IMG/VR virus record: IMGVR_UViG_3300020045_004605
Coordinates: 1-63,680 of that record
Length of the DNA stretch: 63,680 nucleotides
Reading direction: 5' to 3' (one strand)
DNA from: a virus
Taxonomy: Duplodnaviria; Caudoviricetes
In this document: positions 28,254 through 53,949 of the stretch, piece by piece
How positions within the stretch are numbered: position 1 is the first letter of the stretch
Layout: every line of letters begins with the position of its first letter
The notes under the pieces: model-generated
What the model was told of the DNA's origin: nothing
Seen by the model: only the letters and a program-made list of their open reading frames with translations
Databases searched by the model: none
Position numbers and translations under genes: made by a program

Positions 28254-28299
28254 TTTTGTTTACTGATTTTTTTCATACTTTGTTTACGTTTTTGTTGAT

Positions 28300-28333
28300 T
28301 TAGTATTATGAAATCATACATATCGGTAAGTTA
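28300..28333 (-). other. attI-like terminal site of array A1
   Basis: TAACTTACCGATATGTATGATTTCATA on - strand; related to 46135, 50030, 53889. Confidence 0.6.
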
Positions 28334-28337
28334 TAGC

Positions 28338-28727
28338 TTATGGCTGTATTTCGTTTTCATCAGGAACTAATCTCAAATCAGAATCTAAAAACCACCACTT
28401 TTTTTGATTATAAACCTCATTCATTTTAGAAACAAATTCTTCTATAATATCTGTTTTTTCTTTGAAGCATAATTCCATATCGTGACTGTCATCATCAGGA
28501 TTACCTTCTGTATCGTAATATCTATCAGTAAGCCATTCAATTACTTCTTCGGATGATATTGAAGCGGAATTAGACTGTTTGTTTGCCACGCATAAATAAC
28601 CGTGATGTGGTTCAAAATCTTCTTCATCTAAATTATCAATGTTTTTTAATCCTTGCATTTCTAAATCTTCATATCCACAAAGAGTATAACCTTGTTTTAA
28701 TGCTTCTTTTACTGTGATTGTTTTCAT
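28338..28727 (-). CDS. Cassette ORF, acidic hypothetical protein
   Basis: Bounded by GTTATAGCTTGTGG / CCATAAGCTATAAC. Confidence 0.75.
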   Translation of the reverse strand: MKTITVKEALKQGYTLCGYEDLEMQGLKNIDNLDEEDFEPHHGYLCVANKQSNSASISSEEVIEWLTDRYYDTEGNPDDDSHDMELCFKEKTDIIEEFVSKMNEVYNQKKWWFLDSDLRLVPDENEIQP

Positions 28728-28762
28728 AATTACGTTTTGTTTTAGTTAACCACCACAAGCTA

Positions 28763-28890
28763 TAACAGCAATTTGTGGTAATTTGGGCATTAGTTATTAA
28801 TTTAATTTTCAGTCTGTATTTTTGTAATCTATCTTAACTCCGAAGTTCAGGTATTTTTTACCCCAAACTACCACAAGTTGCAGTGCGTTA
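28763..28890 (-). repeat. attC-like hairpin
   Basis: GCAATTTGTGGTAATTTGGG / CCCAAACTACCACAAGTTGC inside TAAC...GTTA. Confidence 0.8.
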
Positions 28891-28901
28891 TGCCTCAGCT
28901 A

Positions 28902-29075
28902 CTAAGCAACCGCCAAAGAAACTCGTTTCAAATCGTTTTTAACGTCTAACCAAAAATCAATTTTACTTTGATTAAATTCAGGTAAATTTTCATCTAACAT
29001 TGTATCGATGATTGAATTTGCAATTTCAAATCCGTGTTTTTCGAATAACTCTTGTGCTTTTTTCTTTGAGTTCAT
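28902..29075 (-). CDS. Cassette ORF, hypothetical protein
   Basis: Likely start MNSKKKAQELF at 29075; resembles 51769-51987 family. Confidence 0.65.
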   Translation of the reverse strand: MNSKKKAQELFEKHGFEIANSIIDTMLDENLPEFNQSKIDFWLDVKNDLKRVSLAVA

Positions 29076-29102
29076 AATTTGTGGAATAAAAAGCCGAAGG
29101 CA

Positions 29103-29228
29103 TAACAATATATTGTAGCAATTAAGGCTTTGGTTATTAATTTATTTACTGTTTTGTACTTTTAAGTTTGGGTGTTTAATCGAAGCATAAGGTGTACTTT
29201 TTCTTAACTGCTACAATAATGAACGTTA
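29103..29228 (-). repeat. attC-like hairpin
   Basis: TATTGTAGCAATTAAG / CTTAACTGCTACAATA inside TAAC...GTTA. Confidence 0.8.
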
Positions 29229-29299
29229 TAGGCAATAGGGCATACGTTCTTCGTTTCAACATTTGTGGAAGAAAAAAAAGAAAAAAGCCCACCGCGCTT

Positions 29300-30100
29300 T
29301 TAGAACAGTTGTGGTTGCGATATTCTAATATTAAGTCGTTTCTCTGCATATTTACATTGTTCCTCTGATAATTCACTTCCTAAATAATTTCGTTTCTCAA
29401 TGATACAAGCATTGGCAGTTGTGCCAGTTCCCATAAAGCTATCGTAAATCAAATCGTTTTCTTTTGTATAAAGTAACAATAGTTTTCTAACTAATTCAGT
29501 TGAATAAGTTGCTTTATTCAAATCATTACTTCCATCGTTATTTGATGCTTCAATATAGTTGTAAAAAACATCGTAAAAATCTTGTCCTTTATTTGATGTG
29601 GTTGTAACTTTCTTATTTGTGTTAAAGGTTAGGTATTCAGTTTTTCTTACAAACACAAAAACAAATTCACAAATTCGAGTTAGTTTATTTTTACTTGTTG
29701 TGTTTGGCAAAGCGGTTGTTTTTTTCCAACTAATACAATCAGCAACAGTAAATTCAGTTCGTTTTATTATTTCAGCAATCAGCAACCACATTGTTTCAAC
29801 ACTTTCATTTCCGTATGAAATATTATAAAGCACACAACCATCTTTTTCTAAAATAGTATTGTAGGCATCAAATAACTCAATAGTCCAATCAATGTATTCA
29901 TCACTTGATTTTGTGTCTAAATACTTATCGTATCGCTTATCTTGGCTATAAACACGAACACCATTTACTATTTTGTTGCTCCAATACTCAATTCTACCAC
30001 CTGTATTATAAGGCGGTGAAGTTATTACTGCATTTACTTTACCATCTAATCTTTTCATAGTTAGTAAGCAATCTTCGTTATATATTTTATTTATTTCCAT
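29300..30100 (-). CDS. Cassette ORF: DNA N4-C/N6-A methyltransferase (beta class)
   Basis: ITSPPY catalytic and DSFMGTGTT SAM-binding motifs. Confidence 0.9.
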   Translation of the reverse strand: MEINKIYNEDCLLTMKRLDGKVNAVITSPPYNTGGRIEYWSNKIVNGVRVYSQDKRYDKYLDTKSSDEYIDWTIELFDAYNTILEKDGCVLYNISYGNESVETMWLLIAEIIKRTEFTVADCISWKKTTALPNTTSKNKLTRICEFVFVFVRKTEYLTFNTNKKVTTTSNKGQDFYDVFYNYIEASNNDGSNDLNKATYSTELVRKLLLLYTKENDLIYDSFMGTGTTANACIIEKRNYLGSELSEEQCKYAEKRLNIRISQPQLF

Positions 30101-30167
30101 CTCTCTTTTTTTCTTTTTTTTCTTTAGTGCTTCGATTAAACATTCTGCTAAAAATCCCTACTGCCCA

Positions 30168-30215
30168 TAACACGTGCTATACGCCATTAAAACGAGCGTA
30201 TAGCACCATCCGTTA
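30168..30215 (-). repeat. attC-like hairpin (48 bp)
   Basis: GTGCTATACGC / GCGTATAGCAC perfect arms inside TAAC...GTTA. Confidence 0.8.
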
Positions 30216-30238
30216 TAAAACAGTTTCTAAACTGCTTT

Positions 30239-30376
30239 TTAAAACCTAAGTTCATCAGGTTTATACTCAGTTTTGCAGTCTGAAAAGTCAATCCAAGTAT
30301 CTCTAAGTTTTGACTTGTATACTACTACTTTTTTACCGTTTGCAACAACAGTTGCGTTTTTTGTTCCTTGTTCCAT
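30239..30376 (-). CDS. Cassette ORF (45 aa)
   Basis: MEQGTKNATVVANGKKVVVYKSKLRDTWIDF...; below ORF-track cutoff. Confidence 0.65.
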   Translation of the reverse strand: MEQGTKNATVVANGKKVVVYKSKLRDTWIDFSDCKTEYKPDELRF

Positions 30377-30409
30377 AATTTAAAATATTTAGTGTTTAAA
30401 CCGATTTTA

Positions 30410-30529
30410 TAACATCATGTTGTTTTCAGTCTACGGCTTGGGTTATATCCGAAATGTGTCGGCTCACTTGTTTTTAATTTGTTGTGTTCAGTCTTTAATC
30501 ACGCCCGAAAAGCAACACGCAAGGCGTTA
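30410..30529 (-). repeat. attC-like hairpin (first in array A1)
   Basis: CATGTTGTTTTC / GAAAAGCAACACG arms; 5' end identical to 53099. Confidence 0.75.
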
Positions 30530-30544
30530 TAAATAACTTTACTC

Positions 30545-30606
30545 AAATTTAGTAATTATTTCAATACAAAATACATTTAGGCGTTATTTAGAATGTTTAC
30601 AAATAA
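30545..30606 (-). promoter_or_regulatory. Array promoter with Fur-box-like palindrome
   Basis: TAAATTTG -7 box (30545-30552, -) and TTATTTAGAATGTTTACAAATAA (30584-30606). Confidence 0.6.
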
Positions 30607-30829
30607 ACTTATTGTGTGGGTCAAATTCAAAAGAGAAAAAACCGCCCTCGCTATCAAGGTAACGGAAAATATATTCAGTACCGTGTGTTAACCGTTTGTC
30701 AATCCATACAGCGGGTTTATCCAATACCAAACTTACACCGCTTAATCTGAATGGTCTGCCGTTCTTTGATATTTGCGTATCAAAGTGATTTACATCTATA
30801 TCAAACCCTTGTATCGAAATCTTGTTCAT
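30584..30829 (-). CDS. Conserved hypothetical protein upstream of array
   Basis: Orthologue of 43808-44053 (NGRPFRLSG...FEFDP.NKFICKHSK). Confidence 0.75.
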   Translation of the reverse strand: MNKISIQGFDIDVNHFDTQISKNGRPFRLSGVSLVLDKPAVWIDKRLTHGTEYIFRYLDSEGGFFSFEFDPHNKFICKHSK

Positions 30830-31082
30830 AGTCTGTCCAAATTTTACATTCAAATCCTAATCGTTCTAATTCTTTTATCCTTACTTTCTGTAATTCTGAA
30901 AGTTTGCCATTCGGTTGTTTAACTTCTATAAATATCGTCTTACCGTCTTTTAAACACATTAAGTCTGGTATTCCATTCTTATTTGTCTTAATCAGTTTTA
31001 TACAAAGCCAACCCTCTTTTGTTAGTTGGTTTATTATTTTGGTTTGTCTTTTTGATTCCAAAATCTCTTTTAAATATGTCAT
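30801..31082 (-). CDS. VRR-NUC domain nuclease
   Basis: GIPDLMCL...FIEVKQPNGKLSELQ. Confidence 0.9.
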   Translation of the reverse strand: MTYLKEILESKRQTKIINQLTKEGWLCIKLIKTNKNGIPDLMCLKDGKTIFIEVKQPNGKLSELQKVRIKELERLGFECKIWTDYEQDFDTRV

Positions 31083-32280
31083 TTGTATAATCTTTTTTGG
31101 TTAGTACTGTTCTATAAATTTTTTCTTCTATGCCGTCTTTTCCGAATATCCAATAAACATCGTTTGACTTTCTATCCATCGAAGTTAATCGGTCACGGCT
31201 TTGCCAATAGCTAACTGCCGAAAAGTCTATATTATAATAAACTAAGTATTTGGCTTTACTTAAACTTATACCTTCTCGACCGCTTACAATTTGCAAAGCT
31301 ATGCATTTATCGGTTGTATTGAACTCTTCTAAATCGTTTGTTAAACGGTCTTTAAATATATCTTTTAAGGCGTTAAACTCTTCCACAAACTTATAAAATA
31401 TTGCTATCTTTTCGCTTTTAAAATGGTTTTGAATAAAGATAGCTTTTGAGTAATCTATAACTTTGCTTGTGCCGTCCTCAAACTTACAAGTGCCACTATA
31501 AAGCTGGTGCAATTTCTGTTGTAGCTTTACACCAGTATCAGCTAAAATCATTTGACCTTGTTTGTTTTCAACTACTAAATCGTTTTTTAATTTGTCTGCA
31601 ATTTTATAGGTTATTGCATCCATATCGCAATATAAAACGTTTTCGTGTACTTGCGTTTCAAAACCCGCTTCTACTTGCGTAAAGGTTAAAATGTAATATC
31701 TTATCCTATGCCAAAAGTCTTTTTTACGTGCGTCCGAATAGTCTTTAACTTGTGCATAACCTAAGTACTTTAATTTAATATTGACGTACTCGTTTGCCCA
31801 TTTATAAAAGTTTGCAAAGTCATTAAAAGGCGAATTATTGCTTACCCAAAATTGATGATACCATTGAGAATGACTTTCGGGTGTTGGTGTTCCGCTTAAA
31901 AATATCATTGGTAAATCACCAAACTTCTCTTTAAATATTTTAGCGGTTACATTTGGCTTTGGATATGCTCCAAATCTATGATGTTCATCGTGTATCACTA
32001 AATCAAAATCCTTTAAAAGTATCTTATGTATGCTTTCATCATTCCAAACCAATAAATCAAAGGTATAACCAAAATCATTATAATCGTCTTGAATTGATTT
32101 TATCGCTCGTTTCTTTGTTAGAAATAAAACCTTTTTAGCGCCGTATAATTTAGCAATTTCTAAGGCTGTAGCTGACTTGCCAGTTCTTACTTCCATCGCT
32201 AAATAAACTATCTTTTTACGTTGCAATATTTCGCAACCATCAGTAGCTAATTTCGTTTGATAATTTCGTAGTTGTTTCAT
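30988..32280 (-). CDS. SF2 (SNF2-like) helicase
   Basis: LRNYQ, TGKS, DEHH, SGTP, GREGISL. Confidence 0.9.
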   Translation of the reverse strand: MKQLRNYQTKLATDGCEILQRKKIVYLAMEVRTGKSATALEIAKLYGAKKVLFLTKKRAIKSIQDDYNDFGYTFDLLVWNDESIHKILLKDFDLVIHDEHHRFGAYPKPNVTAKIFKEKFGDLPMIFLSGTPTPESHSQWYHQFWVSNNSPFNDFANFYKWANEYVNIKLKYLGYAQVKDYSDARKKDFWHRIRYYILTFTQVEAGFETQVHENVLYCDMDAITYKIADKLKNDLVVENKQGQMILADTGVKLQQKLHQLYSGTCKFEDGTSKVIDYSKAIFIQNHFKSEKIAIFYKFVEEFNALKDIFKDRLTNDLEEFNTTDKCIALQIVSGREGISLSKAKYLVYYNIDFSAVSYWQSRDRLTSMDRKSNDVYWIFGKDGIEEKIYRTVLTKKDYTNDIFKRDFGIKKTNQNNKPTNKRGLALYKTD

Positions 32281-32282
32281 AA

Positions 32283-34637: not shown

Positions 34638-34639
34638 AA

Positions 34640-34888
34640 TTAAGAGGCTGTTGTTTCAAATCTATAAAAATAAATATTATCCTTTTTATTCACGAAGTCT
34701 AAAAGACAAACTCCGTCATCTTTATAAGATGGCATTAATAATAAAGGAATTGAATTATAAGCCTTAATAGATAACTCTAATTCTTGAAAAGCCTCTTGAT
34801 GAATTTCTTTTGCGCTACGATAACGAGTGTTACCATTCTCAGGAAACCTTTCATCTAATTCTTTTTTGTTTGTGATAAATAATTTCAT
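34640..34888 (-). CDS. Hypothetical protein
   Basis: 82 aa leading the primase operon. Confidence 0.6.
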   Translation of the reverse strand: MKLFITNKKELDERFPENGNTRYRSAKEIHQEAFQELELSIKAYNSIPLLLMPSYKDDGVCLLDFVNKKDNIYFYRFETTAS

Positions 34889-35034
34889 AAATTAAATAAA
34901 TTAAAAAAGGGATAAATCCACCAACTGCAACACTGGTTTCATTATCCCTTTTAGATTAATGTCTTTTTAAATGTTGCAGTTATACAAATGTAGTGAATTT
35001 ATTTTAATTAAAACAAAATAATTTTAACTTTTTT

Positions 35035-36654: not shown

Positions 36655-36830
36655 ATCTGATTTAATAGTTTATACAATTTATTTTCTTTGTTAGTTAGTT
36701 TAAGTTGTTGCTTAGGTGTTAAGCCGTCTATTGCACCGAATATAACCTTTAACTCTCTTAAACTTTGTATTTCTCTGTTTAGCTTTTTAATCTTAGCTAT
36801 TGTTTGCGGGGGGATAACTGTTGAGTTCAT
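36651..36830 (-). CDS. Hypothetical protein (59 aa)
   Basis: MNSTVIPPQT...; fills gap in - strand operon. Confidence 0.55.
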   Translation of the reverse strand: MNSTVIPPQTIAKIKKLNREIQSLRELKVIFGAIDGLTPKQQLKLTNKENKLYKLLNQI

Positions 36831-43826: not shown

Positions 43827-44053
43827 AAAAACACTTATATGAGGTTAATCATTTTAACCAACAAACACACGAAAACGGCAGACCATTCAGATTAAGCGGG
43901 ATAAGTTTGGTATTAAATAAACCCGCAGTATGGATTGACAAAAGATTAACACACGGCACCGAGTACATTTTTAGATATTTGGATAAAGAGGGCGGTTTCT
44001 TTTCTTTTGAATTCGACCCAAACAACAAGTTTATTTGTAAACATTCTAAATAA
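43808..44053 (+). CDS. Conserved hypothetical protein upstream of array
   Basis: Orthologue of 30584-30829. Confidence 0.75.
   Translation: MDKFTVEKHLYEVNHFNQQTHENGRPFRLSGISLVLNKPAVWIDKRLTHGTEYIFRYLDKEGGFFSFEFDPNNKFICKHSK
44031..44053. promoter_or_regulatory. Fur-box-like palindrome in gene 3' end
   Basis: TTATTTGTAAACATTCTAAATAA. Confidence 0.6.
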
Positions 44054-44107
44054 CGCCTTGATGTTTTTTATATTAAAATAATTACTATTTTTGATTAAAG
44101 TTATTTA

Positions 44108-44237
44108 TAACGTCCTGTGGCTTTGTCGTCGTTGTGGCGAGTGAACCTAAATCTTAACAAATAATAACTAAATTTTAAAATTATGACTGAACTTTCAAAA
44201 AATGCCCAAGTGCCACAATGCGACAAAACCGCTGTTA
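44108..44237 (+). repeat. attC-like hairpin
   Basis: GTGGCTTTGTCGTCGTTGTGGC / GCCACAATGCGACAAAACCGC. Confidence 0.8.
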
Positions 44238-44866
44238 CAAGCAGTCCTTGTTCTGTTGATTGTTTGGATTTAATTAAAGATTTACTCGTTTTTGAATCCG
44301 AAGATGATTTTTATTTCCTTCAAATTCTCCAACGTAAAAAAGAAAATGCAGAATTAGGAAGTAATTCTCGTGTAATTAAAAATTATTACATAAAATCACT
44401 TCAAAACTTATTAGATAGATATGATGAGATAAAAGCATTATGCAATTTGTTTAATGCAAGAGCATCTTTAAGATTGAATAAAAGAAGTTTTGAAAAGGTG
44501 GGTTTTAAGTCTCTTGAAAATATTGCGAATACAATGCAAAACCGAGAGTACAAACATTTAATGAACTCATACGATAGGGCTTGTGGCTTGCTTAATAACG
44601 AGAAAACTAAAAAATGGATAATTGATATTGATAAGGATGAAGTTATATGGTTAGAACAAATTATAAACGCTGTTCAACCTTGTGAGCCAAATGGAAATAA
44701 GATATTAAAGCAATTGCCTACAAAAAGTGGCATCCATTTAATTACAACTCCGTTTAATGTAATGCAATTCAAAGAGAATTTTAAAAAAGAATTAGAAGCC
44801 TACAAAATGGGCGAAATAAATATTGATATTCATAAAGATAATCCTATCAACTTATACGTTCCGTAG
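44183..44866 (+). CDS. Cassette ORF, possible AEP-fold protein
   Basis: WIIDIDKD and TKSGIHLI resemble AEP motifs I and II; starts within hairpin. Confidence 0.6.
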   Translation: MTELSKNAQVPQCDKTAVTSSPCSVDCLDLIKDLLVFESEDDFYFLQILQRKKENAELGSNSRVIKNYYIKSLQNLLDRYDEIKALCNLFNARASLRLNKRSFEKVGFKSLENIANTMQNREYKHLMNSYDRACGLLNNEKTKKWIIDIDKDEVIWLEQIINAVQPCEPNGNKILKQLPTKSGIHLITTPFNVMQFKENFKKELEAYKMGEINIDIHKDNPINLYVP

Positions 44867-44875
44867 GATTGCTTG

Positions 44876-45002
44876 TAACGTTGAGCATAACGCTAGTTAC
44901 GAGCTAAATAAGCCGAAACTTTCAGATTAAAAACCATCTTAAAAGACACAAAACTAAGTGTAAATTCAAGACCGAAGCCGTAATTAGTGTTATGCATTGT
45001 TA
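44876..45002 (+). repeat. attC-like hairpin
   Basis: GCATAACGCTAGTTACG / CGTAATTAGTGTTATGC. Confidence 0.85.
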
Positions 45003-45047
45003 CAAGCTGGTTATTCTAATTAAAACTAATTTTAAATATAAATAAAA

Positions 45048-45683
45048 ATGAATAAGTATTATCAAACATTACAAAACATCCTTGAAAAAGGTAAAACACA
45101 ATTAAATAAAAAAGGTAATATAAAATACCTTATTAACGAAGTTTTATCTATGGATAAAAAAGACTTATTAAAAATATTTGATGAGCATAAAATAGCAAAA
45201 TATAAATTACAAAAAGAGATTGATTTGTATTTTAAAGGCATTACAGAAATTAAAGAATATAACGAGGCAGGTATTTTTTGGTGGGATTATTGCGCTCCTG
45301 CTTTAATAAATAGCTACCCCACTTATTTTAAAAAGTTACCATTCTTAATCGAAAAAATAAATAAAGAAAAAAGACCATCAAAAAATTACGTTCTATTTAT
45401 AGGGGAGACGGGAGTAAAAACAAATCAATTGCCTTGTTTAAGTTTAATACAGTTTCAAATCAGCGATGACGAACTTTATATAACTGTTTATCAAAGGAGT
45501 GCAGATAGTAATTTAGGGTTACCCTCTGATATTTATCAAATATTTTTAATAAGCGAATTAATAGATATACCATTAGCTAATATTACATTTTTTATAGGGA
45601 ATGCACATATTTATGAAAACAATATTGATAATACTTATGAGTTACTAAAAGGGAACAACCCTAAATTTGAGCTCAATGTTTAA
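45048..45683 (+). CDS. Cassette ORF: thymidylate synthase-superfamily enzyme
   Basis: LPC catalytic Cys, YQRSADSNLGLPSD, GNAHIYEN. Confidence 0.85.
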   Translation: MNKYYQTLQNILEKGKTQLNKKGNIKYLINEVLSMDKKDLLKIFDEHKIAKYKLQKEIDLYFKGITEIKEYNEAGIFWWDYCAPALINSYPTYFKKLPFLIEKINKEKRPSKNYVLFIGETGVKTNQLPCLSLIQFQISDDELYITVYQRSADSNLGLPSDIYQIFLISELIDIPLANITFFIGNAHIYENNIDNTYELLKGNNPKFELNV

Positions 45684-45691
45684 CTTGCTTG

Positions 45692-45761
45692 TAACGTTAA
45701 AAATAAACGATGGTGGCGTATGTGGTTAGTAGATTCCGCCACTATTGTTTATTGATTGTTA
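45692..45761 (+). repeat. attC-like hairpin (70 bp)
   Basis: AATAAACGATGGTGGCG / CGCCACTATTGTTTATT. Confidence 0.85.
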
Positions 45762-45813
45762 GCACTTCGCCTTTTTATTTACAAACAAATATTAATTTTT
45801 AAAACAAAATATA

Positions 45814-46125
45814 ATGACAGGAAAATATTTAATTACCACAGATGCGTGGTTTTATGGAGCAGACGGCAAACAATATAAATCCGTTTGGGGAGAAGTTGAA
45901 ATTGTTAGCGATGCAATTTTAGGAATAAAAACAAATGTTAGAAGTTCTAATTGGTTTGCAAAAGTTAGCGGAGAAAAAAATCACGTTATAATAGCTGGTT
46001 GCCAAATCCATTATGCTGTAAAAACAGAAGAAAAACCACATACAGAATTAACTGCCGATTATACAATTGAAGTAGGAGAAGTCAAAAATTATAATCGTCC
46101 GACTTCTATTTATGTTGTTGAGTAA
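45814..46125 (+). CDS. Cassette ORF, hypothetical protein
   Basis: 103 aa bounded by GTTAGCACTTCGCCTT / AAGGTGAGTGCTAAC. Confidence 0.75.
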   Translation: MTGKYLITTDAWFYGADGKQYKSVWGEVEIVSDAILGIKTNVRSSNWFAKVSGEKNHVIIAGCQIHYAVKTEEKPHTELTADYTIEVGEVKNYNRPTSIYVVE

Positions 46126-46134
46126 GGTGAGTGC

Positions 46135-46174
46135 TAACTACCTGATAGGTATGATTTTGTCATACCTATCGGTA
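46135..46174 (+). other. attI-like terminal site of array B1
   Basis: TAACTACCTGATAGGTATGATTTTGTCATACCTATCGGT, identical at 53889. Confidence 0.65.
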
Positions 46175-46572: not shown

Positions 46573-46983
46573 ATGGGAGAACTAAAATTTAGAGCGTGGG
46601 ATGTTTTTTATAAAAAAATGACTTACGAACCAATTGTGTCAGATGGAACTGATGGTGGAGAAACATCATGTGTTAGAATAAATGATGCAATTGATTGTTT
46701 TGATGGTGTATTAATGCAATATACGGGATTAAAAGACAAAAATGGTAAAGACATCTATGATGGGGATATTATAATTGTTTATGAAAATGGAAATGGAAAA
46801 ATAAAGTCTTGGGAAAACACTGTTTGCTTTAAATCAGGAGCATTTTGTTTATACAATCCTGATTGTTGTGATACTTGTAAAAATGGATTTGGCATAACTT
46901 GTACACTTATGGAAGCAAGATATTACGGAGAATTAGAAATAATCGGAAACATTTACGAAAACCCTGAACTAATAAACAATTAA
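46573..46983 (+). CDS. YopX family protein
   Basis: KFRAWD, MQYTGLKDKNGKDIYDGDI, EIIGNIYENPEL. Confidence 0.9.
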   Translation: MGELKFRAWDVFYKKMTYEPIVSDGTDGGETSCVRINDAIDCFDGVLMQYTGLKDKNGKDIYDGDIIIVYENGNGKIKSWENTVCFKSGAFCLYNPDCCDTCKNGFGITCTLMEARYYGELEIIGNIYENPELINN

Positions 46984-46986
46984 ACT

Positions 46987-47214: not shown

Positions 47215-47425
47215 AGCATTAGAGTTGGTTAATGAATATCAGACCGATTTAAGAGGGTTTATACTCAGTAAATACGAAGCTACTCAATGCGCCAAACTCG
47301 ATTTACAACACTCTATTGAGTTGTTGGAGGAAATTGAAAACAGTTGTATAGGTAATTTTGTTATTTTTATTCATCAAGAAATCGAATCCCTCCGAAACCA
47401 ACTTGAACATTTAAATAGTATTTAG
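47204..47425 (+). CDS. Hypothetical protein
   Basis: KALELV...ATQCA, resembles 51769-51987. Confidence 0.6.
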   Translation: MEDKALELVNEYQTDLRGFILSKYEATQCAKLDLQHSIELLEEIENSCIGNFVIFIHQEIESLRNQLEHLNSI

Positions 47426-47427
47426 TT

Positions 47428-47616
47428 ATGATAGCACTAATCAAAAAAATAATTAAAAGACAAAAGCTTTTAAGAAAATATAAAAAAGGTAAAAATGAAC
47501 TGTCAGATTTAACTTTTTTACTTAGTAATTTTGACTGGAGTTATGATGATAAACATTTTTTTATACATCACTATAATTGCGAGAACCGTTGTTACAACAG
47601 AATTAAAAAACTTTAA
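47428..47616 (+). CDS. Hypothetical protein
   Basis: 62 aa in operon. Confidence 0.5.
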   Translation: MIALIKKIIKRQKLLRKYKKGKNELSDLTFLLSNFDWSYDDKHFFIHHYNCENRCYNRIKKL

Positions 47617-47697
47617 CCAACCCAATTAACCCAATAAAATAGAAATGGAAAAGCAAAGAAACTCAGTAAACATTTTCAACGAAAAACAATAAATAAG

Positions 47698-47898
47698 ATG
47701 AAAGCAAAAGTAATTATTGAAAACGGAATAACAACTATCGAATTAAAAGCCGATAATGATTTTGAAAAAGACGTTATTGAAAAATTTGTAGATAGAAGAA
47801 AAGACTATAATTTAAACACGGAAATAACAACTAAGTACGCTTATGGTCAACACTCTGAACATAAAATAACAATAACAGTAGAAACTTTAAAACAATAA
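47698..47898 (+). CDS. Hypothetical protein
   Basis: 66 aa in operon. Confidence 0.6.
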   Translation: MKAKVIIENGITTIELKADNDFEKDVIEKFVDRRKDYNLNTEITTKYAYGQHSEHKITITVETLKQ

Positions 47899-47900
47899 AT

Positions 47901-48203
47901 ATGAAAACATTATTATTACTCGTGCTACTATGCACAACGACAATCGAACCGCCATTTAATTTTAATGGCGTATTCTATGGAAATCAAAATATAAAACTTG
48001 TTAATCTTGGATGGAACACAAGGCACATCGGGGCAAATTATACGATAAAGCGTAACGGTGCGATAGTTAGAACGGGCGTAACACAACAAGTTAATGTAGT
48101 TTCTATTCCGGTTGAAAGCAATTTCAAACGAGCGACTTTTAGTATTAGTCAGAGTTTGGATGGTGAAACGAGTGCGGAAGTGTACACTGTCGTTAGGAAA
48201 TAG
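47901..48203 (+). CDS. Exported protein similar to lipoprotein 20836-21228
   Basis: Hydrophobic N-terminus; PPFNFNG...VNLGW...TIKRNG. Confidence 0.6.
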   Translation: MKTLLLLVLLCTTTIEPPFNFNGVFYGNQNIKLVNLGWNTRHIGANYTIKRNGAIVRTGVTQQVNVVSIPVESNFKRATFSISQSLDGETSAEVYTVVRK

Positions 48204-48207
48204 CTTA

Positions 48208-48323
48208 TAACGTTCTACGGCTACACGTCCGTTGCGTTCAAAGAACTGAGTACTCTCGGCTAAGCTAAAACGTGAAAGTTAAACTAATATAAACAAAATA
48301 GCAATGGCGTGTAACCGTTGTTA
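48208..48323 (+). repeat. attC-like hairpin
   Basis: ACGGCTACACGTCCGTTGC / GCAATGGCGTGTAACCGT. Confidence 0.8.
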
Positions 48324-48339
48324 TAAGCAGTAGCGGATT

Positions 48340-48570
48340 ATGAAAAATTTAAAATTATTTGTCAAATTATTTTTTGCTTTACTATTAGCGGAATTAATTG
48401 TTTTTTTATTTGTAGTATTAATGGTTTCATTTGCTAATTGGCAAATTATAGAATTACCTGAATTTAACGAACAAACTTTTAAAAATATAAGGATAATATT
48501 AGCCTGTAATTTATTTGGAACGATATGTTATTTTCCATTATTGATAATGATGAATAGTCGTCTTAAATAA
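48340..48570 (+). CDS. Cassette ORF, two-TM membrane protein
   Basis: Bounded by GTTATAAGCAGTAGC / GCTATTGCTTATAAC. Confidence 0.7.
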   Translation: MKNLKLFVKLFFALLLAELIVFLFVVLMVSFANWQIIELPEFNEQTFKNIRIILACNLFGTICYFPLLIMMNSRLK

Positions 48571-48591
48571 ATCTAACGTAGCTATTGCTTA

Positions 48592-48689
48592 TAACAGGCG
48601 CGCTTTGCGAAGGCTTTGGAGCTTGCTCAAAGCGTTAGTTAAGGGAAGTGCGCCTGTTAAGGAAAAGGCGTTTGCGCATTTTCCTTAAC
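48592..48689 (+). repeat. Atypical GC-rich hairpin plus ORF-less mini-cassette
   Basis: TAACAGGCGCGCTT/AAGTGCGCCTGTTA then GTTAAGGAAAAGGCG-TTTG-CGCATTTTCCTTAAC. Confidence 0.7.
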
Positions 48690-48813
48690 GTTATCAGGCT
48701 TTGTGTCTGTTGCGTAAAAGAAAACCAAAACATTAATTAAACACTAAACATTACAGATTATGACTAAACATTCAGAAAACACCGAGCCAAGCAATAGCAC
48801 AAAACCTGTGTTA
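48686..48813 (+). repeat. attC-like hairpin
   Basis: CAGGCTTTGTGTCTGTTGC / GCAATAGCACAAAACCTG. Confidence 0.8.
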
Positions 48814-49188
48814 GCAAATCGGCTTTTTAAATTCCGTGCTTGGGTAAAATAACAAAATAGAATGATTAAAGTTTTTGGATTTAACGAACATTTAGTTTTT
48901 GAACAAACTTGGGATTCTCCAAGTATTAAAGAAAATATCTTTGAAATTGAAGATTGCCATATAATGCAGTTTACAGGATCAATTGATAATAAAGGAAATG
49001 AAATTTTTGAAGGTGATATAGTTAGATTGCCTGATAGTTTTTTCCCAAGAGATAGACCAATTATTTTCACAGATTATGGCAGTTGGTACATTGGAAAAAT
49101 TGGAATAGGGTTTGACCAAATGAAAGCTGACGGATTTGTAGAATGCGAAGTTATTGGAAATGTTTTTGAAAATCCTGATTATTTATAA
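48760..49188 (+). pseudogene. Cassette ORF: YopX family protein with in-frame stop
   Basis: ATG 48760...FKFRAWVK-TAA(48850)-QNRMIK...MQFTG...EVIGNVFENP in one frame. Confidence 0.75.
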
Positions 49189-49209
49189 TGTACGTCATAA
49201 GCTGTTTGC

Positions 49210-49337
49210 TAACGTTTCGTGGCTTTATTTAGTAGCGGAATTGTACAAAATAAAGTTTACATAAAAATTAAAGATTACCGACTAAAAACAACTATTAAAT
49301 TAAAAAACAATCCCGCTATTGAATAAAACCATTGTTA
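49210..49337 (+). repeat. attC-like hairpin
   Basis: GTGGCTTTATTTAGTAGCGG / CCGCTATTGAATAAAACCAT. Confidence 0.8.
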
Positions 49338-49369
49338 GCATTAGTGCGGATATTTAAAACTAAAACGTA

Positions 49370-49654
49370 ATGAGAAAAAACATGATTTTAACATCACTAG
49401 CAATGATGATGGCGGCACAAGAACAAGGATTGAGATTTGATAGAGAGGAAGAAATAGAAAGAATGAAATCTAAAAAAGAACCTAAAAAGATAATCCCTAA
49501 CGGTTGCAAAGAATATCATTTTACAAGAAGTGGAAGATTTGACACAACAGAAAATATGTGGAACGATATTGATTATATTTTTACTTGTGTTGCTTCAAAC
49601 GATAAAAATGCGGTTAAGAAGTTCGATAAATTTTCTTATGAGAACAATTTGTAG
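49370..49654 (+). CDS. Cassette ORF, hypothetical protein
   Basis: Bounded by GTTAGCATTAGTGC / GCATTGATGCTAAC. Confidence 0.75.
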   Translation: MRKNMILTSLAMMMAAQEQGLRFDREEEIERMKSKKEPKKIIPNGCKEYHFTRSGRFDTTENMWNDIDYIFTCVASNDKNAVKKFDKFSYENNL

Positions 49655-49663
49655 CATTGATGC

Positions 49664-49752
49664 TAACGTTTTGCGTATATGTGCAATACGCTAATAAACA
49701 TTTGTTATTAATTTAAAGTTTCTTTCCTGCGTATTGCACATATACGCTGTTA
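49664..49752 (+). repeat. attC-like hairpin with perfect 19-bp arms
   Basis: GCGTATATGTGCAATACGC / GCGTATTGCACATATACGC. Confidence 0.85.
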
Positions 49753-49775
49753 TAAGCTGATAAAAATTACAGATT

Positions 49776-50015
49776 ATGGAACGAAAATATTTGATTACAC
49801 AAGAACAGTTAGAGCAAATTGAGCATTACAAAAGAATGTTTGAATTAAATGCGGATTTGGTTAGAGATTTATGTAACTCTGAAAAAGATGATGTTGTTTA
49901 TGGATTTGAGTTAGGCAAGATGCACTCGCATTTAAGAGATTGCTTTATAGAAATGATGGAGTTGGAAGGCGAAATTAGAAACCAAAAAGTTGTTGATGAA
50001 CCGAAAAGCGAGTAA
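49776..50015 (+). CDS. Cassette ORF, hypothetical protein
   Basis: Bounded by GTTATAAGCTGATAAAAATTAC / GTAATTTTTATTTGCTTATAAC. Confidence 0.75.
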   Translation: MERKYLITQEQLEQIEHYKRMFELNADLVRDLCNSEKDDVVYGFELGKMHSHLRDCFIEMMELEGEIRNQKVVDEPKSE

Positions 50016-50029
50016 TTTTTATTTGCTTA

Positions 50030-50065
50030 TAACTATCTAATAAATATGATTTTGTCATACATTAT
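50030..50065 (+). other. attI-like terminal site of array B2
   Basis: TAACTATCTAATAAATATGATTTTGTCATAC. Confidence 0.55.
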
Positions 50066-50094
50066 AAACAAAAAGTAAAATAAAGTATGAAATT

Positions 50095-50295
50095 ATGAGT
50101 TTTTTATATAAACCAATAGAGGAACAAAAACTGTCTTACGAAATAAAAGTAGGTGACGGAAAAATAGAAATTAACTTTTATTCAGACTGCGGTAAATTCG
50201 GTTGTGATGAAATGCTACAAGGCTATATTTTAACACCCGAAAGATTAATGCAAATACTATCTGAAAGAGAAGATTTAACAGACGATGAGATTTAA
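50095..50295 (+). CDS. Hypothetical protein
   Basis: 66 aa after terminal site. Confidence 0.6.
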   Translation: MSFLYKPIEEQKLSYEIKVGDGKIEINFYSDCGKFGCDEMLQGYILTPERLMQILSEREDLTDDEI

Positions 50296-50480
50296 ATCAA
50301 AAATCCCCTCCATTACCAATAATGCGAGGGGATTTTCTTTTTAACCAAAAAACTAATTATGAAAACATTGCTAAGATAATTAAAAAATGTTAAAGTTTAA
50401 AAAATAATTGCTTTTTTATTTGGTGGTGTTATTTTAATTACTATCTTTGAATATTATTAATAACTAAATAATCAGAAATT

Positions 50481-50630
50481 ATGGAAAATAAAATTGAATC
50501 ACTTACTAAAATGGAATTAAAAAAAATAATTAGAAATAGCACAACTAAAGTTTATAATGGACTATTTGCAATGCAAAAACACGAATTAGTAAAATTAGCT
50601 AAAAGTATTTTAAATCAGAAACCCGCTTAA
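50481..50630 (+). CDS. Small moron-like ORF (49 aa)
   Basis: MENKIESLTKMELKK...; same promoter as 25864-26064 in A. Confidence 0.55.
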   Translation: MENKIESLTKMELKKIIRNSTTKVYNGLFAMQKHELVKLAKSILNQKPA

Positions 50631-50651
50631 TAACTAAGCGGGTTTCTTTTT
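50617..50651. terminator. Bidirectional terminator
   Basis: AGAAACCCGCTTA/TAAGCGGGTTTCT. Confidence 0.75.
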
Positions 50652-50653
50652 AA

Positions 50654-51103
50654 CTACCTAAACTTTTTATAAATAAAATAAATCGGGATAAGTAACAAAA
50701 TCCACAACCACCAAAGAGGAACACTTTTACGCTCGGTTTGTTTTACTTCTGTTTCAATTACTTGTTTACTACCTACAGAAACGCCTTTACTTTCGATTTG
50801 TGACGTTTTCTCATCAATCTCAACTACTTTATTAACTTTAGTCGTTTTAAGTCTTAAGATACCGTTTAAAACTGTTTTACCGTTATAAGTTATCGGTTTA
50901 GTAATATCAATCGGCACTATCTCTATTTCGTTAATAGTTGAAGTATCGACTGAACGCTCAAACTTTTGCGTATTGGTAACGGTCTTTGTAGTATCAATTG
51001 CCTTAACTTCGGTTGTTTCTTTAACTTCAGTCTTTTGGACTTTGCGGGTGCTACAACTTACCAAACTTATAGAGAGTATTAATATTGTTATTTTATTTTT
51101 CAT
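50654..51103 (-). CDS. Lipoprotein with C-terminal TM, candidate unimolecular spanin
   Basis: LVSC lipobox; PLWWLWILLLIPIYFIY. Confidence 0.6.
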   Translation of the reverse strand: MKNKITILILSISLVSCSTRKVQKTEVKETTEVKAIDTTKTVTNTQKFERSVDTSTINEIEIVPIDITKPITYNGKTVLNGILRLKTTKVNKVVEIDEKTSQIESKGVSVGSKQVIETEVKQTERKSVPLWWLWILLLIPIYFIYKKFR

Positions 51104-51246
51104 CTTTTATTTTCCAATACATTAAACATTTTTTTGATATAAAAGAATAAGGCGAACTTGCAAAATACGCTTGTCTGTATTCGCTTGGTTCAGCCGTATA
51201 TCTGTAACAGCTATCTTTTAAAGGACAATCTTTGCCCGAGCACATA

Positions 51247-51438
51247 CTAATGTCTGCCATAATCTTTTACTTTAAATTGATTTTCGTAATACTTTGCGTC
51301 TTTGAATACCTCTCGGTATCTTGTGTTTGTCCTTTCGCAATTTTGCCCTCTTTCGAGTTGCCGTTGCATCCATCGTTTAATTATTTCTAAACGTTCTTGT
51401 TTAGTTTTCATAGGTCTAATATAATAAATAACCAACAT
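51247..51438 (-). CDS. Hypothetical protein
   Basis: Homologue of 24814-24981. Confidence 0.6.
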   Translation of the reverse strand: MLVIYYIRPMKTKQERLEIIKRWMQRQLERGQNCERTNTRYREVFKDAKYYENQFKVKDYGRH

Positions 51439-51768
51439 AAAACCAAAGTATCATACAAAACCAACTATAAGCCACATCAGTACTTTCTTTAAATACTTTA
51501 TTCGGTTTTTTTAAATGCCCAATATAATCACTAATACTTGTTATTAAAGGATAAAACAACATCCATAATACAAAATCTAAGTTTTCCATAATCTATTCTT
51601 TTAATTTATTTAATTCGTTCTTACTGTTTTCTAAGGCATCTAAAAGGCTTTTACACTCGGTTATATACTTTGTGCTTTTTAAGTCATTATCATTGTTTAA
51701 ATCTAAGAATTTAACGTATAACTCAGCTTTAATGCCTTTTATGATATAAATTAACTCTTGCGCTCGGT

Positions 51769-51987
51769 TCATAGTTTTTCAATTTCGGCTTTAACTTGTT
51801 GCCAATATTCATCAATGTAAACAAATTTACCTACATTACCACTTGGTGATAATTTAATAGTAGATGCACTCAATATCTCATCAACACAAATTAAAGCGCA
51901 TTGTTTGGCTTGTTCTATATTAAATCCAAGTTCTTGAAACCTTATAACTAATTCTAAGGCTTTGTTTTTATATTTTAATTCTATCAT
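51769..51987 (-). CDS. Hypothetical phage protein
   Basis: AKQCALICVDEIL...YWQQVKAEI. Confidence 0.7.
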   Translation of the reverse strand: MIELKYKNKALELVIRFQELGFNIEQAKQCALICVDEILSASTIKLSPSGNVGKFVYIDEYWQQVKAEIEKL

Positions 51988-52069
51988 AATTAAAAATCGT
52001 TATCGTTATCCGTAAACCATATTATCATTAAGCCTACGACATATGCTAATGTAAATACTAATGTCATAT

Positions 52070-52966
52070 TTATATAATGTTTTTAAATTTTAAATAAAGT
52101 ATGTAACTACTGTTACTTATTTCGTAGTTGTAATTACAATCATCACATTCGATTAATCTTTTTATAGTTCCCATAGCAGTTACATTGTTTTTAACGAGCG
52201 TTATTTGTTCACTTGAACAACAAGGACAACTATATTTAAGATTGTTGTTTAAAACGCCAGCGTGTGTGTTTTGCTTAATGTAGTTTTGCATAGTTAAAAA
52301 AACATCTTCCAAAACAATTATATCCCCCTCACAATAGTTAACCATTTCGCTTAAGGCGGTTTTATCGTTATTCATTACGCCTTTCCACATATCAAAACCA
52401 CTATGCTTAACTTTTGCACCAACACCTAAATATTGCGCAATGTAATCTAATTTATTCGAGTTGAAATTAAACCCGCTTTTAGCTTTCTTTAAAGTATCTA
52501 AGGTTTTATAATTTGGGAACATTGGTATTCTGTGATAAATACAACGGGTTCTTATCCATTTAATATCAAACCTATCCCCATTATGCGCTATCATTTCATC
52601 GGCTTGGTTTGCAACTTTTATAAAGTCTATTAACATTTGCTTATCGCATTTGTTTTTATCCCACGCTAAGGTATGTATTGTTTCCTCGTTTTCCCACTTG
52701 TAAGATATACAAATTATAGCACGTTCATTAATGATGTTTTCGGGCGTGATATTTAAGTTGTAACCAATACGCCAACTATAAACAACGTTAGGGCTTGTTT
52801 CAATGTCAAAGAATAAACGTTTAACTGATTCTGATTTACGCCTTAATTTAACGTACTTTTCTTTGGTTTCTTTGTTTAATCTGTAACGGTTGTTTTTATT
52901 TAATTCTAAGCCTAATAACTTTGCGTGGCTCGGCTGTATTCTAAATCTTTCGTTTCCGTTTTTCAT
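52070..52966 (-). CDS. RNase H-like exonuclease with Zn-ribbon
   Basis: Near-identical to 23710-24606. Confidence 0.85.
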   Translation of the reverse strand: MKNGNERFRIQPSHAKLLGLELNKNNRYRLNKETKEKYVKLRRKSESVKRLFFDIETSPNVVYSWRIGYNLNITPENIINERAIICISYKWENEETIHTLAWDKNKCDKQMLIDFIKVANQADEMIAHNGDRFDIKWIRTRCIYHRIPMFPNYKTLDTLKKAKSGFNFNSNKLDYIAQYLGVGAKVKHSGFDMWKGVMNNDKTALSEMVNYCEGDIIVLEDVFLTMQNYIKQNTHAGVLNNNLKYSCPCCSSEQITLVKNNVTAMGTIKRLIECDDCNYNYEISNSSYILYLKFKNII

Positions 52967-53027
52967 AATTTAGTTTTTAAATTAATACGAAAATACGAAA
53001 AAAATTGATAGTTAGTCAGTTAGTTGG

Positions 53028-53090
53028 TTATTTAGAATGATTTTAAATTAATGATAAATGTAATTAGTATTGAAAATATTATTAAATTTG
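53028..53090 (+). promoter_or_regulatory. Array promoter with Fur-box-like palindrome
   Basis: TTATTTAGAATGATTTTAAATTA; TAAATTTG at 53083. Confidence 0.6.
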
Positions 53091-53181
53091 TGTTTAAATA
53101 ACGCCTTGCGTGTTGCTTTTCGGCTTGGACTGAAACAAAACCACGCTTCGGATATAAATTAACCTTAACAAATATAAAACA

Positions 53182-53451
53182 ATGGATAAATTAAAGACTA
53201 CAGAAAAAGCTGAAAACAACATGCTGTTAGCGACTGTTTATTTCAAGACTTATAATGTAAAATCATTATGGGCGGGAAAATACGCTCATACAAAACACGG
53301 ATTTACAAGTTCAATCTTAACCGCTATTTGGTGGTTTATTACTTGGTCTATTATTGAAGCTATTAGAGTTTTGAGGCTTAATAAATATCATTACGGAAAT
53401 ATATTCGGGATTGGCAAAAAGAAAACCGATTGTTACGGACGTTTACTATAA
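53182..53451 (+). CDS. Cassette ORF, membrane-associated hypothetical protein
   Basis: Starts inside hairpin loop. Confidence 0.65.
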   Translation: MDKLKTTEKAENNMLLATVYFKTYNVKSLWAGKYAHTKHGFTSSILTAIWWFITWSIIEAIRVLRLNKYHYGNIFGIGKKKTDCYGRLL

Positions 53452-53458
53452 TAGTTTA

Positions 53459-53583
53459 TAACGTTTCGCTTGTATGGTTAGTGCGGAAAAATACGCCGAA
53501 ACATTTCATATATAACTGACCACACAAGTACAAAATCATATTAAAATTTAAAACTAATACCGCATTAATTATACAAGCTGTTA
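53459..53583 (+). repeat. attC-like hairpin
   Basis: GCTTGTATGGTTAGTGCGG / CCGCATTAATTATACAAGC. Confidence 0.85.
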
Positions 53584-53615
53584 GCATTAGTGCGGTTCTT
53601 AAAACTAAAATTATT

Positions 53616-53873
53616 ATGCAAAATTACATTAGATTATTAAGCTACGAAAATGCTGAAAAAGTAATAAAATTTGTTAATTCTTTAAATAACTACGATGATT
53701 ACGCTTGTATAACTAGTGGTGGTGTTAGTTTGAAATCAACTGAAGAAAATCATCCTAAAATATTAGATTATATAAAATCATTAAATGTTAGGTTTGAATT
53801 AACTTCAAAACATCCCGAAGCAGTAAATAAAGAAATCGTTTCTAATTTACGAAATGCTGGTATTATAGAATAA
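53616..53873 (+). CDS. Cassette ORF, hypothetical protein
   Basis: Same cassette ends as 49370-49654. Confidence 0.75.
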   Translation: MQNYIRLLSYENAEKVIKFVNSLNNYDDYACITSGGVSLKSTEENHPKILDYIKSLNVRFELTSKHPEAVNKEIVSNLRNAGIIE

Positions 53874-53949
53874 ACGTAGCATTGATGCTAACTACCTGAT
53901 AGGTATGATTTTGTCATACCTATCGGTTTTTCTATCATACATTATCTAC

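Follow-up and report, generated by a model that had tools for sequence, protein, structure and literature searches.

Integrons are regarded as bacterial devices, and the phage cases so far have been taken as borrowed fragments. Here, we analysed a single IMG/VR virus record of 63,680 bp (IMGVR_UViG_3300020045_004605; "the window" hereafter means this whole stretch of DNA), in which four arrays of hairpin-bounded genes, named A1, B1, B2 and B3, are laid out much as integron cassettes are. We consider it likely, at a probability of roughly 0.8, that these are integrase-less arrays of an integron-type cassette system that belongs to Flavobacteriaceae/Bacteroidota phages. The closest described cases are the attC clusters without integrase (CALINs) of Qi et al. 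(2023; PMC9892861), who reported 17 CALINs in phages, including the virulent Polaribacter phage P12002L, which carries methyltransferase cargo and one site of which recombined with attI1 under IntI1 in Escherichia coli. There, the two to three predicted sites per phage were taken as bacterial integron components; the main text reports no phage recombinase, terminal site, cassette polymorphism or inverted polarity, and nowhere uses the words Flavobacter*, Bacteroid* or Xer. If the sites described here count as attC, the window arrays are likewise CALINs, with at least two close sites and no integrase nearby. An earlier note on this DNA, made from the letters alone, had known of no description of the arrangement in phages, and this statement divides in two: integrase-less attC clusters were already known (main text of PMC9892861), while a system of recombinase and array together was not found described. 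In fact, the literature searched, with subscription titles and supplements thinly covered, held no phage recombinase-array system, inverted polarity, terminal site or native Flavobacteriaceae arrays.

All four arrays, each on one strand, were found again where that note had placed them, as were its 14 TAAC-hairpin-GTTA sites, which on recounting measure 48-131 nt (TAAC to GTTA inclusive) and are distributed as four in A1, three in B1, five in B2 and two in B3. Under a strict definition (TAACG...TGTTA with two 26-nt arms folding at -15 kcal/mol or better), 13 of the 14 are recovered, the exception being the site at 48592, which reads TAACA, and 30 dinucleotide shuffles of the window gave 0-2 strict sites each (mean 0.4). 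The same strict scan finds four short sites in P12002L, at least one of them with the loop of window site 30215-30168. Two looser scans were discarded: one for any TAAC..GTTA pair with an end-closing minimum-energy fold, which gave about 95 matches per strand everywhere and was uninformative, and one for arms alone folding at -9 kcal/mol, which was too loose, with 92 real matches against 46-70 in shuffles. Rfam at its gathering threshold matched a tRNA as the sole hit in the window and none of the sites, and at E<=1 the sites gave two chance-level matches only. A covariance model was trained on phage sites including the window's own, so its window matches arise by construction; at E<=0.01, it misses window site 48592 and the short sites of P12002L.

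Site geometry and pairing were counted over 635 unique sites from the window and its relatives. Here, the shared geometry described in the earlier note is borne out, as 387 of the 635 have a 5-nt spacer behind TAAC and 399 a 1-nt spacer ahead of GTTA. The arms, which it had considered unrelated, are in part related: across 33 aligned sites (window and Lillamyvirus), TAACG and TGTTA never vary, and many arms have a common consensus. The consensus fold of 21 pairs includes 15 with compensatory double changes, and a C x A mismatch is found at the fifth stem position in 201 of the 635 sites. Moreover, these sites contain 1242 wobble pairs (1101 G·T and 141 T·G) as against 292 A/C 1x1 mismatches, 269 of which come from a single conserved C x A within stem positions 2-5. 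Since a wobble is a mismatch on the other strand, and since wobbles far exceed the non-conserved A/C mismatches (about 23), the structure appears to be selected on the TAACG..TGTTA strand, which in these phages is the coding strand, and it is the ORF-sense strand (ORF, open reading frame) that would fold, by this analysis as single-stranded DNA. We also noticed that the wobbles are themselves asymmetric, with G in the 5' arm and T in the 3' arm in 1101 and the reverse in 141, which could be a mutational bias of exposed single-stranded DNA or a device that weakens the complementary-strand hairpin.

More conspicuously, the two cognate ends of a cassette, after GTTA and before the next TAAC, pair over a median of 15 bp (at least 10 bp in 85% of 450 unique cassettes), whereas for the two flanks of one and the same site (n = 730) the median is 5 bp, no different from random ends; the examples of complementary ends given in the earlier note are correct. 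Such cognate pairing is the look of a site split by the linear insertion of a circle, and is an integron hallmark. Cassette movement is visible in the closest cultured relatives, which are Flavobacterium phages of the genus Lillamyvirus along with Nonlabens phages. In six Lillamyvirus genomes of otherwise 98-100% identity, the variation is in whole cassettes. A 444-bp unit, 100% identical in lillamy9-1 and lillamy9-7, stands mid-array in one of the two and at the array end in the other, and the breakpoints at the donor (filled and empty) and at the target (empty and filled) are all at ATAAC|. The order within this unit is hairpin, GTTA box, ORF and box-TAAC, so the hairpin travels ahead of its ORF. 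Four more polymorphisms break at TAAC|, namely the presence or absence of cassette 10, cassette 14 in exchange for 11, the presence or absence of cassettes 15 and 16, and cassettes 9 and 13 in exchange for 17 and 18; two different terminal cassettes join the same terminal sequence there. Identity at the Lillamyvirus junctions is limited to 5-7 bp. It had been held that related phages which never gain, lose or reorder cassettes precisely at TAA|C would speak against attC-type exchange; in cultured relatives, gain, loss, replacement and relocation all occur exactly at TAAC|. The paper describing the Lillamyvirus phages (PMC7077304) mentions no hairpins, cassettes or integrase in its available text.

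With respect to the recombinase, six-frame searches of the window at E<=1 gave no match to PF00589, PF01797, PF00239 or a profile of the array-linked recombinase described below, in keeping with the earlier statement that no tyrosine recombinase is visible even in near-complete phage A. The same search of sniff9-1 and lillamy9-1 found no tyrosine recombinase, Y1 transposase, serine recombinase or profile match. A recombinase is, however, linked to arrays in relatives. A site-pattern search of IMG/VR gave at least 120 loci, at least 58 of them with at least three strict sites, always on one strand; PF00589 was found in eight of the 40 array-bearing viral records searched (among the matches listed), and in six of those eight a protein of 265-289 amino acids is encoded directly after the array on the same strand. 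From the opposite direction, a protein-first search gave 190 viral contigs that encode a relative of this recombinase, of which the best 80 were examined. Upstream sequence of at least 2 kb was available in 49 of them, and 46 of these 49 carry sites upstream on the same strand (39 with at least two sites), having been found by recombinase homology alone. The site totals were 216 upstream on the same strand, four downstream on the same strand, none upstream on the opposite strand and three downstream on the opposite strand, in a count for which downstream sequence was more plentiful than upstream. At the array end is a conserved terminal site, TAAC|TACTATATGTA.., which stops a fixed 51-52 nt short of the recombinase ATG in most loci and 43 or 36 nt short of it in subclades. 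The window array ends resemble this TACTATATGTA-type terminal site by eye only and have no recombinase gene beside them, and no HUH gene was seen at the six array ends inspected.

The cultured Polaribacter phages Freya_1 to Freya_10 (MT732463-MT732472; ten isolates from one host, of graded genome sizes from 43,978 to 48,920 bp) give a second view of cassette change, here with sites, insertion point and recombinase gene in one phage. The Freya integrase, of 271 amino acids, and gp28 of Cellulophaga phage Ingeline are examples of the phage-type recombinase. Freya_10 equals Freya_1 plus 4921 bp, which hold 12 annotated small ORFs and at least four sites, and this insert, itself ending in ..CTAAC|, is placed precisely at the boundary of ..ACAAC| with the 46 nt leading up to the integrase ATG. 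In the comparison of Freya_1 with Freya_10, the variable block is thus directly upstream of the integrase. The Freya site core is NAAC/GTT, and cassette polymorphism in the two phage groups accordingly falls at (T)AAC|. With the TAAC| polymorphisms, the complementary cognate ends and a recombinase at the array end in related phages, the attC-type cassette recombination proposed in the earlier note is well supported. That note had also suggested looking for IntI-like or Xer-like recombinases next to such sites, and these are present both in viral contigs and in bacterial genomes.

Judged from its sequence, the array-linked recombinase looks active and Xer/IntI-like, with the catalytic R, K, HxxR, H and Y positions all invariant. 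Its Pfam domains are Phage_integrase and an N-terminal Phage_int_SAM_4. The top NCBIfam model is NF040815, named 'site-specific tyrosine recombinase/integron integrase' and of XerA type, which gives 172-207 bits and has a cut-off of 220; the XerC/XerD models give 146-171 bits (cut-offs about 330), and the integron-integrase model TIGR02249 gives 136-165 bits (cut-off 265) from two separate stretches, its middle part finding no match. Among solved structures, the nearest are XerA (181.9 and 160 bits), then IntI4 (147.7 bits, in two stretches) and then XerD. Public records call the relatives 'tyrosine-type recombinase/integrase' or 'XerD' only. In a quick, midpoint-rooted tree, 53 rows (50 with the phage layout) split from 50 bacterial rows with an SH-aLRT of 99; IntI, XerC and XerD references were left out, so placement relative to IntI follows from the profile scores. 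The array-linked enzyme is probably not the lysogeny integrase. In Flavobacterium urumqiense, it is flanked by phage genes, with a primase upstream and a protease and a terminase downstream, and the locus has no tRNA nearby. Moreover, Cellulophaga phage Ingeline_1 has two integrases, one encoded by a 1197-nt gene (11729-12925) beside a helix-turn-helix regulator and the other, of 263 amino acids (21703-22494), being of the array-linked kind and placed after a primase and small ORFs. The recombinase may nonetheless have a double role that includes lysogeny.

Bacterial genomes hold close relatives of this recombinase with the phage layout, and these loci are probably prophages. They also hold proteins of 350-550 amino acids, 39-49% identical and with an N-terminal extension, that have the array downstream. 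In this chromosomal layout, the sites are on the strand opposite to the recombinase gene and the ORFs run with the gene. When the covariance model built from phage sites was applied to 80 bacterial loci, 73 of 73 matches were either upstream on the same strand or downstream on the opposite strand, so that in both layouts the 3' end of the array abuts the recombinase gene. Chromosomal sites score up to 84.6 bits with this model. At least 41 matches are found in Flavobacterium sp. SM15 and at least 21 in a Flaviramulus genome (19 of them in one 36-kb stretch), both arrays lying downstream of a Xer/IntI-like recombinase of 356-380 amino acids, with the ORFs opposite to the site strand. At least one match (E<=1e-6) is present in 88 of 151 genomes sampled from the family of the Flaviramulus genome, a survey whose counts are floors, since 20 candidates were scored per genome. 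One chromosomal recombinase reaches 241.5 bits on NF040815, above the cut-off of 220.

How such a system would work can be proposed as follows. The mobile unit on the ORF-sense strand would be [hairpin - T-GTTA box - ORF - box-TAAC], with TAAC| on both sides. Each site would consist of an R box (..TAAC / GTTA..), an asymmetric unpaired spacer (5 versus 1 nt), a long imperfect stem, often with the conserved C x A mismatch, and a variable loop, and would fold from the single-stranded sense strand. The Xer/IntI-like tyrosine recombinase (265-289 amino acids) would then cut at or beside TAA|C and release cassettes as circles, the site being closed by the two complementary ends of the cassette. Re-insertion would be preferred at the conserved terminal site beside the recombinase's own gene. 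We infer the catalysis by this recombinase and, by analogy, the exact bond of cleavage, the circular intermediate and the folding as single-stranded DNA. The window phages and Lillamyvirus encode none, so any rearrangement there would be catalysed in trans, the putative suppliers being a co-infecting phage, a prophage or the host. The inverted ORFs of the earlier note fit this order as well, given that the unit seen to move is a hairpin followed by an ORF on the coding strand and that the G·T excess puts the fold there.

Several observations weigh against the arrays being an active integron-type system of phages. The junctions confine the crossover no more closely than to (A)TAAC(G). Neither the window nor the two complete Lillamyvirus genomes carry a recombinase of the families searched, which counts against activity there, and three of the 49 recombinase loci have no upstream site. 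The recombinase itself lacks the IntI-specific insertion and scores under every curated cut-off. As for folding, seven of the 14 window sites, folded whole as DNA, were stabler than every one of 200 shuffles (z -3.6 to -7.8), while the other seven were no stabler than shuffles (z +0.49 to -1.73) owing to the cost of 70-100-nt loops, and whole-site z-scores were dropped as a significance test; with DNA parameters, the sense strand folds better than the antisense in only 10 of the 14. The same hairpin precedes different ORFs, with similarity stopping at GTTA, and the cassettes at 49325-49663 and 53580-53892 have unrelated ORFs between the same end boxes, GTTAGCATTAGTGCGG...TAGCATTGATGCTAAC, together with a common 5' untranslated part. 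Constant boxes around unrelated ORFs and shared hairpins are left unexplained by a simple one-point cassette exchange. At the B2 and B3 loci, differences between the two phages of the window (phage A and phage B, described below) do not break at TAAC, so that comparison lends cassette exchange no support. Finally, the integrases of the Freya and Ingeline phages were taken as signs of lysogeny in PMC8776804, in the available text of which integron, cassette and hairpin go unmentioned.

Among the other explanations, the one that survives best is that the arrays are debris of bacterial integrons, that is, CALINs picked up by phages and served, if at all, by a canonical host IntI. The AAC/GTT core and attC-like geometry fit such an origin, as do the related chromosomal arrays in Flavobacteriaceae, the short sites of the same kind in P12002L and the recombination of one P12002L site with attI1 by IntI1; this is also how Qi et al. 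(2023; main text of PMC9892861) read other phages. We nevertheless consider it unlikely. In phages the ORFs share the strand of the sites, and in the chromosomal arrays they run on the other one, so that neither cassette pool can simply stand in for the other, and the phage arrays have a recombinase clade of their own (50 of 53 rows with the phage layout, SH-aLRT 99 in the quick tree). Moreover, all recombinases here stay under the integron-integrase cut-off and are without the IntI insertion, and integrons are rare in Bacteroidetes according to the available text of the IntegronFinder 2.0 paper (PMC9024848).

That the hairpins are instead RNA elements, acting as stems for mRNA processing, stability or termination and shuffled by homologous recombination between repeated stems, is very improbable. 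It would account for a structure on the sense strand with many G·U-compatible pairs, for promoter-like motifs before arrays and a T run after the B3 terminal hairpin, for the start codon in some loops and for contigs that share hairpin modules without their ORFs. The 5-7 bp common at junctions are, however, too short for homologous recombination, one unit moved to a hairpin-free site, and the cognate-end complementarity, fixed terminal site and linked tyrosine recombinase lack an RNA rationale; nor do the sites match Rfam. An additional RNA role of the hairpins may exist alongside cassette recombination.

Replication is known to delete sequence between short direct repeats that flank palindromes, and template switching (slipped mispairing) at hairpin bases via short TAAC(G) repeats, with no dedicated enzyme, would suit the 5-7 bp of junction microhomology. 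We give it only a slight chance, as it leaves unexplained the relocation of an intact unit to the array end, the 4.9 kb inserted exactly beside the integrase, the conserved spacer geometry and mismatch, and the recombinase linkage. HUH transposition (IS200/IS605-type Y1 or IS91-type) resembles what is seen, in that a unit beginning with a hairpin inserts 3' of a tetranucleotide (TAAC), strand-specifically and without target duplication, as in IS608, but is hardly credible given that no Y1 transposase (PF01797) is present in the window, sniff9-1 or lillamy9-1, that the array-linked gene is a tyrosine recombinase of the Xer/IntI kind, and that the right end has no hairpin of its own and pairs with the left box, unlike the subterminal hairpins at both ends of IS200/IS605.

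Turning to the record itself, a self-comparison showed that 21.2-36.1 kb (phage A, minus strand) is syntenic in inverted orientation with 37.5-56.4 kb (phage B, plus strand), with about 77-100% identity per segment, mostly 82-91%. Two related phage genomes or segments are thus joined head to head over 21200-56400, with the pivot near 36800, and the record looks from its sequence like an assembly chimera of two strains and not one genome; CheckV rates it 100% complete. Array B1 of phage B occupies the same locus as A1 of phage A with entirely different cassettes, B2 has no counterpart in phage A, and where phage B carries B3, phage A has a pentapeptide-repeat gene (22846-23562, minus strand) built from a long run of 15-nt units in tandem (23066-23435). 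Array B3 is followed, at a distance of about 400 nt, by a GIY-YIG nuclease gene with a C-terminal helix-turn-helix (54311-54868, plus strand), which probably encodes a homing-type endonuclease.

Array A1 (28330-30586, minus strand) consists of a leader with a promoter-like motif, four sites, four cassettes and a terminal TAAC. The motif, TAAATTTG (30544-30551), lies just upstream of the first site and presumably fits the Bacteroidota -7 promoter motif TAnnTTTG. Site A1a (30410-30529; TAACG..hairpin..TGTTA, arms at -16.6, 57.9 bits with the covariance model) is followed by an ORF of about 45 amino acids (30239-30376). Site A1b (30168-30215; z -4.91) is of the short type, at 48 nt, with the loop TCGTTTTAATG as in P12002L, and precedes an N6/N4 DNA methyltransferase ORF identified by family searches (29300-30100). 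The flanking untranslated parts of the methyltransferase cassette (29240-29300 and 30100-30165, minus strand) are complementary over about 60 nt, a pairing that includes a long A-rich/T-rich run and is far longer than the usual 15-bp boxes. Site A1c (29103-29228; strict scan, 95.3 bits) and site A1d (28763-28890; strict scan, covariance model, z -3.61) precede ORFs with no family match (28902-29108 and 28338-28727, respectively). At the array end (28290-28333), the terminal TAAC (28333-28330) is followed by TTACCGATATGTATGATTTC..., which is similar, by eye, to the conserved integrase-proximal site of relatives.

The three remaining arrays are on the plus strand. In B1 (44051-46173; three sites), the leader between the first TAAC (44051-44054) and GTTA contains a promoter-like -7 motif, TATTTTTG (44086-44093). 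Site B1a (44108-44237) has in its loop the ATG of the next ORF (44183-44866; PHROG 14949, unknown function), whose PHROG homology begins at residue 25, the first 24 residues being encoded by the 3' arm of the hairpin; in sniff9-1, a site of about 89% identity to B1a stands ahead of a different gene. Next are site B1b (44876-45002; strict scan, z -3.75) with an ORF of the thymidylate-synthase family (45048-45683) and site B1c (45692-45761; strict scan, z -4.98) with an ORF of PHROG 22562, also of unknown function (45814-46125). The B1 end (46135-46173) is a terminal TAAC and a conserved hairpin, identical at 53886-53927.

Array B2 (48208-50033) has five sites and five cassettes, one of them empty and one with a split YopX gene. 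Site B2a (48208-48323; strict scan, covariance model) precedes an ORF that appears hydrophobic by eye (48340-48570), and site B2b (48592-48659; z -4.36), the TAACA variant missed by the strict scan, precedes the empty mini-cassette, a GTTA..TAAC stretch of 34 nt with complementary ends and no ORF (48656-48689). Site B2c (48686-48813; ATG in the loop, strict scan, covariance model) is followed by the YopX-family gene (48761-49188), broken into 48761-48852 and 48862-49188: the first part, of 30 codons, ends in KFRAWVK and a TAA stop, and the remainder restarts 9 nt on. An intact YopX paralogue is located outside the arrays (46573-46983). Site B2d (49210-49337; strict scan, covariance model) leads to an ORF with a weak match to PHROG 37413 (49370-49654) and site B2e (49664-49752; strict scan, z -7.82) to one without a family match (49776-50015), after which the array ends (50030-50075) in a terminal TAAC and TATCTAATAAATATGATTTTG... 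Array B3 (53083-53927) opens with the promoter-like TAAATTTG (53083-53090) and has two sites and two cassettes: B3a (53099-53229; strict scan) holds in its loop the ATG of ORF 53182-53451, and B3b (53459-53583; strict scan, covariance model) is followed by ORF 53616-53873. Its terminal TAAC (53889-53892) is followed by a hairpin with a T run behind.

Taken together, 12 of the 14 window cassettes have a single ORF, one is empty and one carries the two-piece YopX gene, the named cargo being the N6/N4 DNA methyltransferase, the thymidylate-synthase-family protein and YopX, with no function assigned to the other products. In the ORFs at 44183, 48761 and 53182, as in one of sniff9-1 (3764), the ATG is in the hairpin loop and reading continues through the 3' arm and the GTTA box, and two unrelated proteins begin with residues encoded by one hairpin, in copies of about 89% identity; the hairpin module may thereby donate a start codon to cassettes without one. 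Compared with all loci collected, the window shares hairpin modules and one ORF fragment, and no window cassette was found whole in any other locus compared.

Beyond these arrays, there is a somewhat better than even chance that Bacteroidota and their phages own a second, hitherto undescribed integron-type branch, defined by a Xer-like recombinase without the IntI insertion and by long TAACG..TGTTA sites, of which the phages have their own version, with sense cassettes that enter beside the recombinase gene, and in which many lytic phages keep the arrays alone and have them rearranged in trans. If true, phage accessory genes such as orphan methyltransferases would form a shared mobile cassette pool exchanged during co-infection, giving anti-restriction methyltransferases and like genes a route between phages. 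Moreover, a phage-owned system with its recombinase would explain clean single-gene gain and loss in hypervariable phage regions, and the integron family would widen to an enzyme without the domain thought to define strand choice. Cultured phage-host pairs (Freya, Ingeline and the Flavobacterium Lillamyvirus isolates) make the system testable, and the site model flags large unannotated arrays in many Flavobacteriaceae genomes.

Among known systems, the PeSL cassettes of T4-type phages are stem-loops between small accessory genes in hyperplastic regions, with promoters and, probably, homologous recombination as their route of exchange. The window arrays share with them the placement of stem-loops among small accessory genes and the tie to gene shuffling, but differ in having 5-7 bp of junction identity in the relatives and a linked tyrosine recombinase with a terminal site. 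CTX phage integration is a Xer recombination on folded single-stranded DNA, in which a hairpin mimics a two-arm site, and the pdif modules of Acinetobacter plasmids are Xer-dependent and bounded by inverted sites. A Xer-type enzyme, together with the hairpin as a two-arm site (CTX) or inverted sites bounding modules (pdif), is common to these and the present system, yet both use host XerC/D and dif-like 28-bp sites, in contrast to a dedicated array-linked enzyme, long stems and a TAAC/GTTA core here. With the CALINs of virulent phages, the likeness extends to integrase-less attC-like clusters, lytic phages and DNA methyltransferase cargo. The chromosomal arrays of Flavobacteriaceae, whose layout is similar to that of the 'reverse integrons' of Treponema, have the same site family, a related recombinase and an array end abutting its gene, but differ from the phage arrays in the longer recombinase, the downstream array, ORFs against the site strand and a separate clade. 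With integrons proper, the system shares the AAC/GTT core, a hairpin that is imperfect in a conserved way and has an unpaired, asymmetric spacer, structure kept over sequence, complementary cognate ends and mostly one ORF per cassette, as well as the folding-strand order of array, terminal site and sense recombinase gene, new cassettes entering beside the recombinase. Cassette origin is as unexplained here as with integrons, hairpins and boxes recurring with unrelated ORFs. What sets the phage system apart is a recombinase of 265-289 amino acids that has no IntI-specific insertion and falls below integron-integrase cut-offs, ORFs on the folding strand with the hairpin preceding the ORF, boxes of 13-22 bp versus 7, sites mostly of 115-130 nt with large loops, some of which hold a start codon, and a phage as the carrier.

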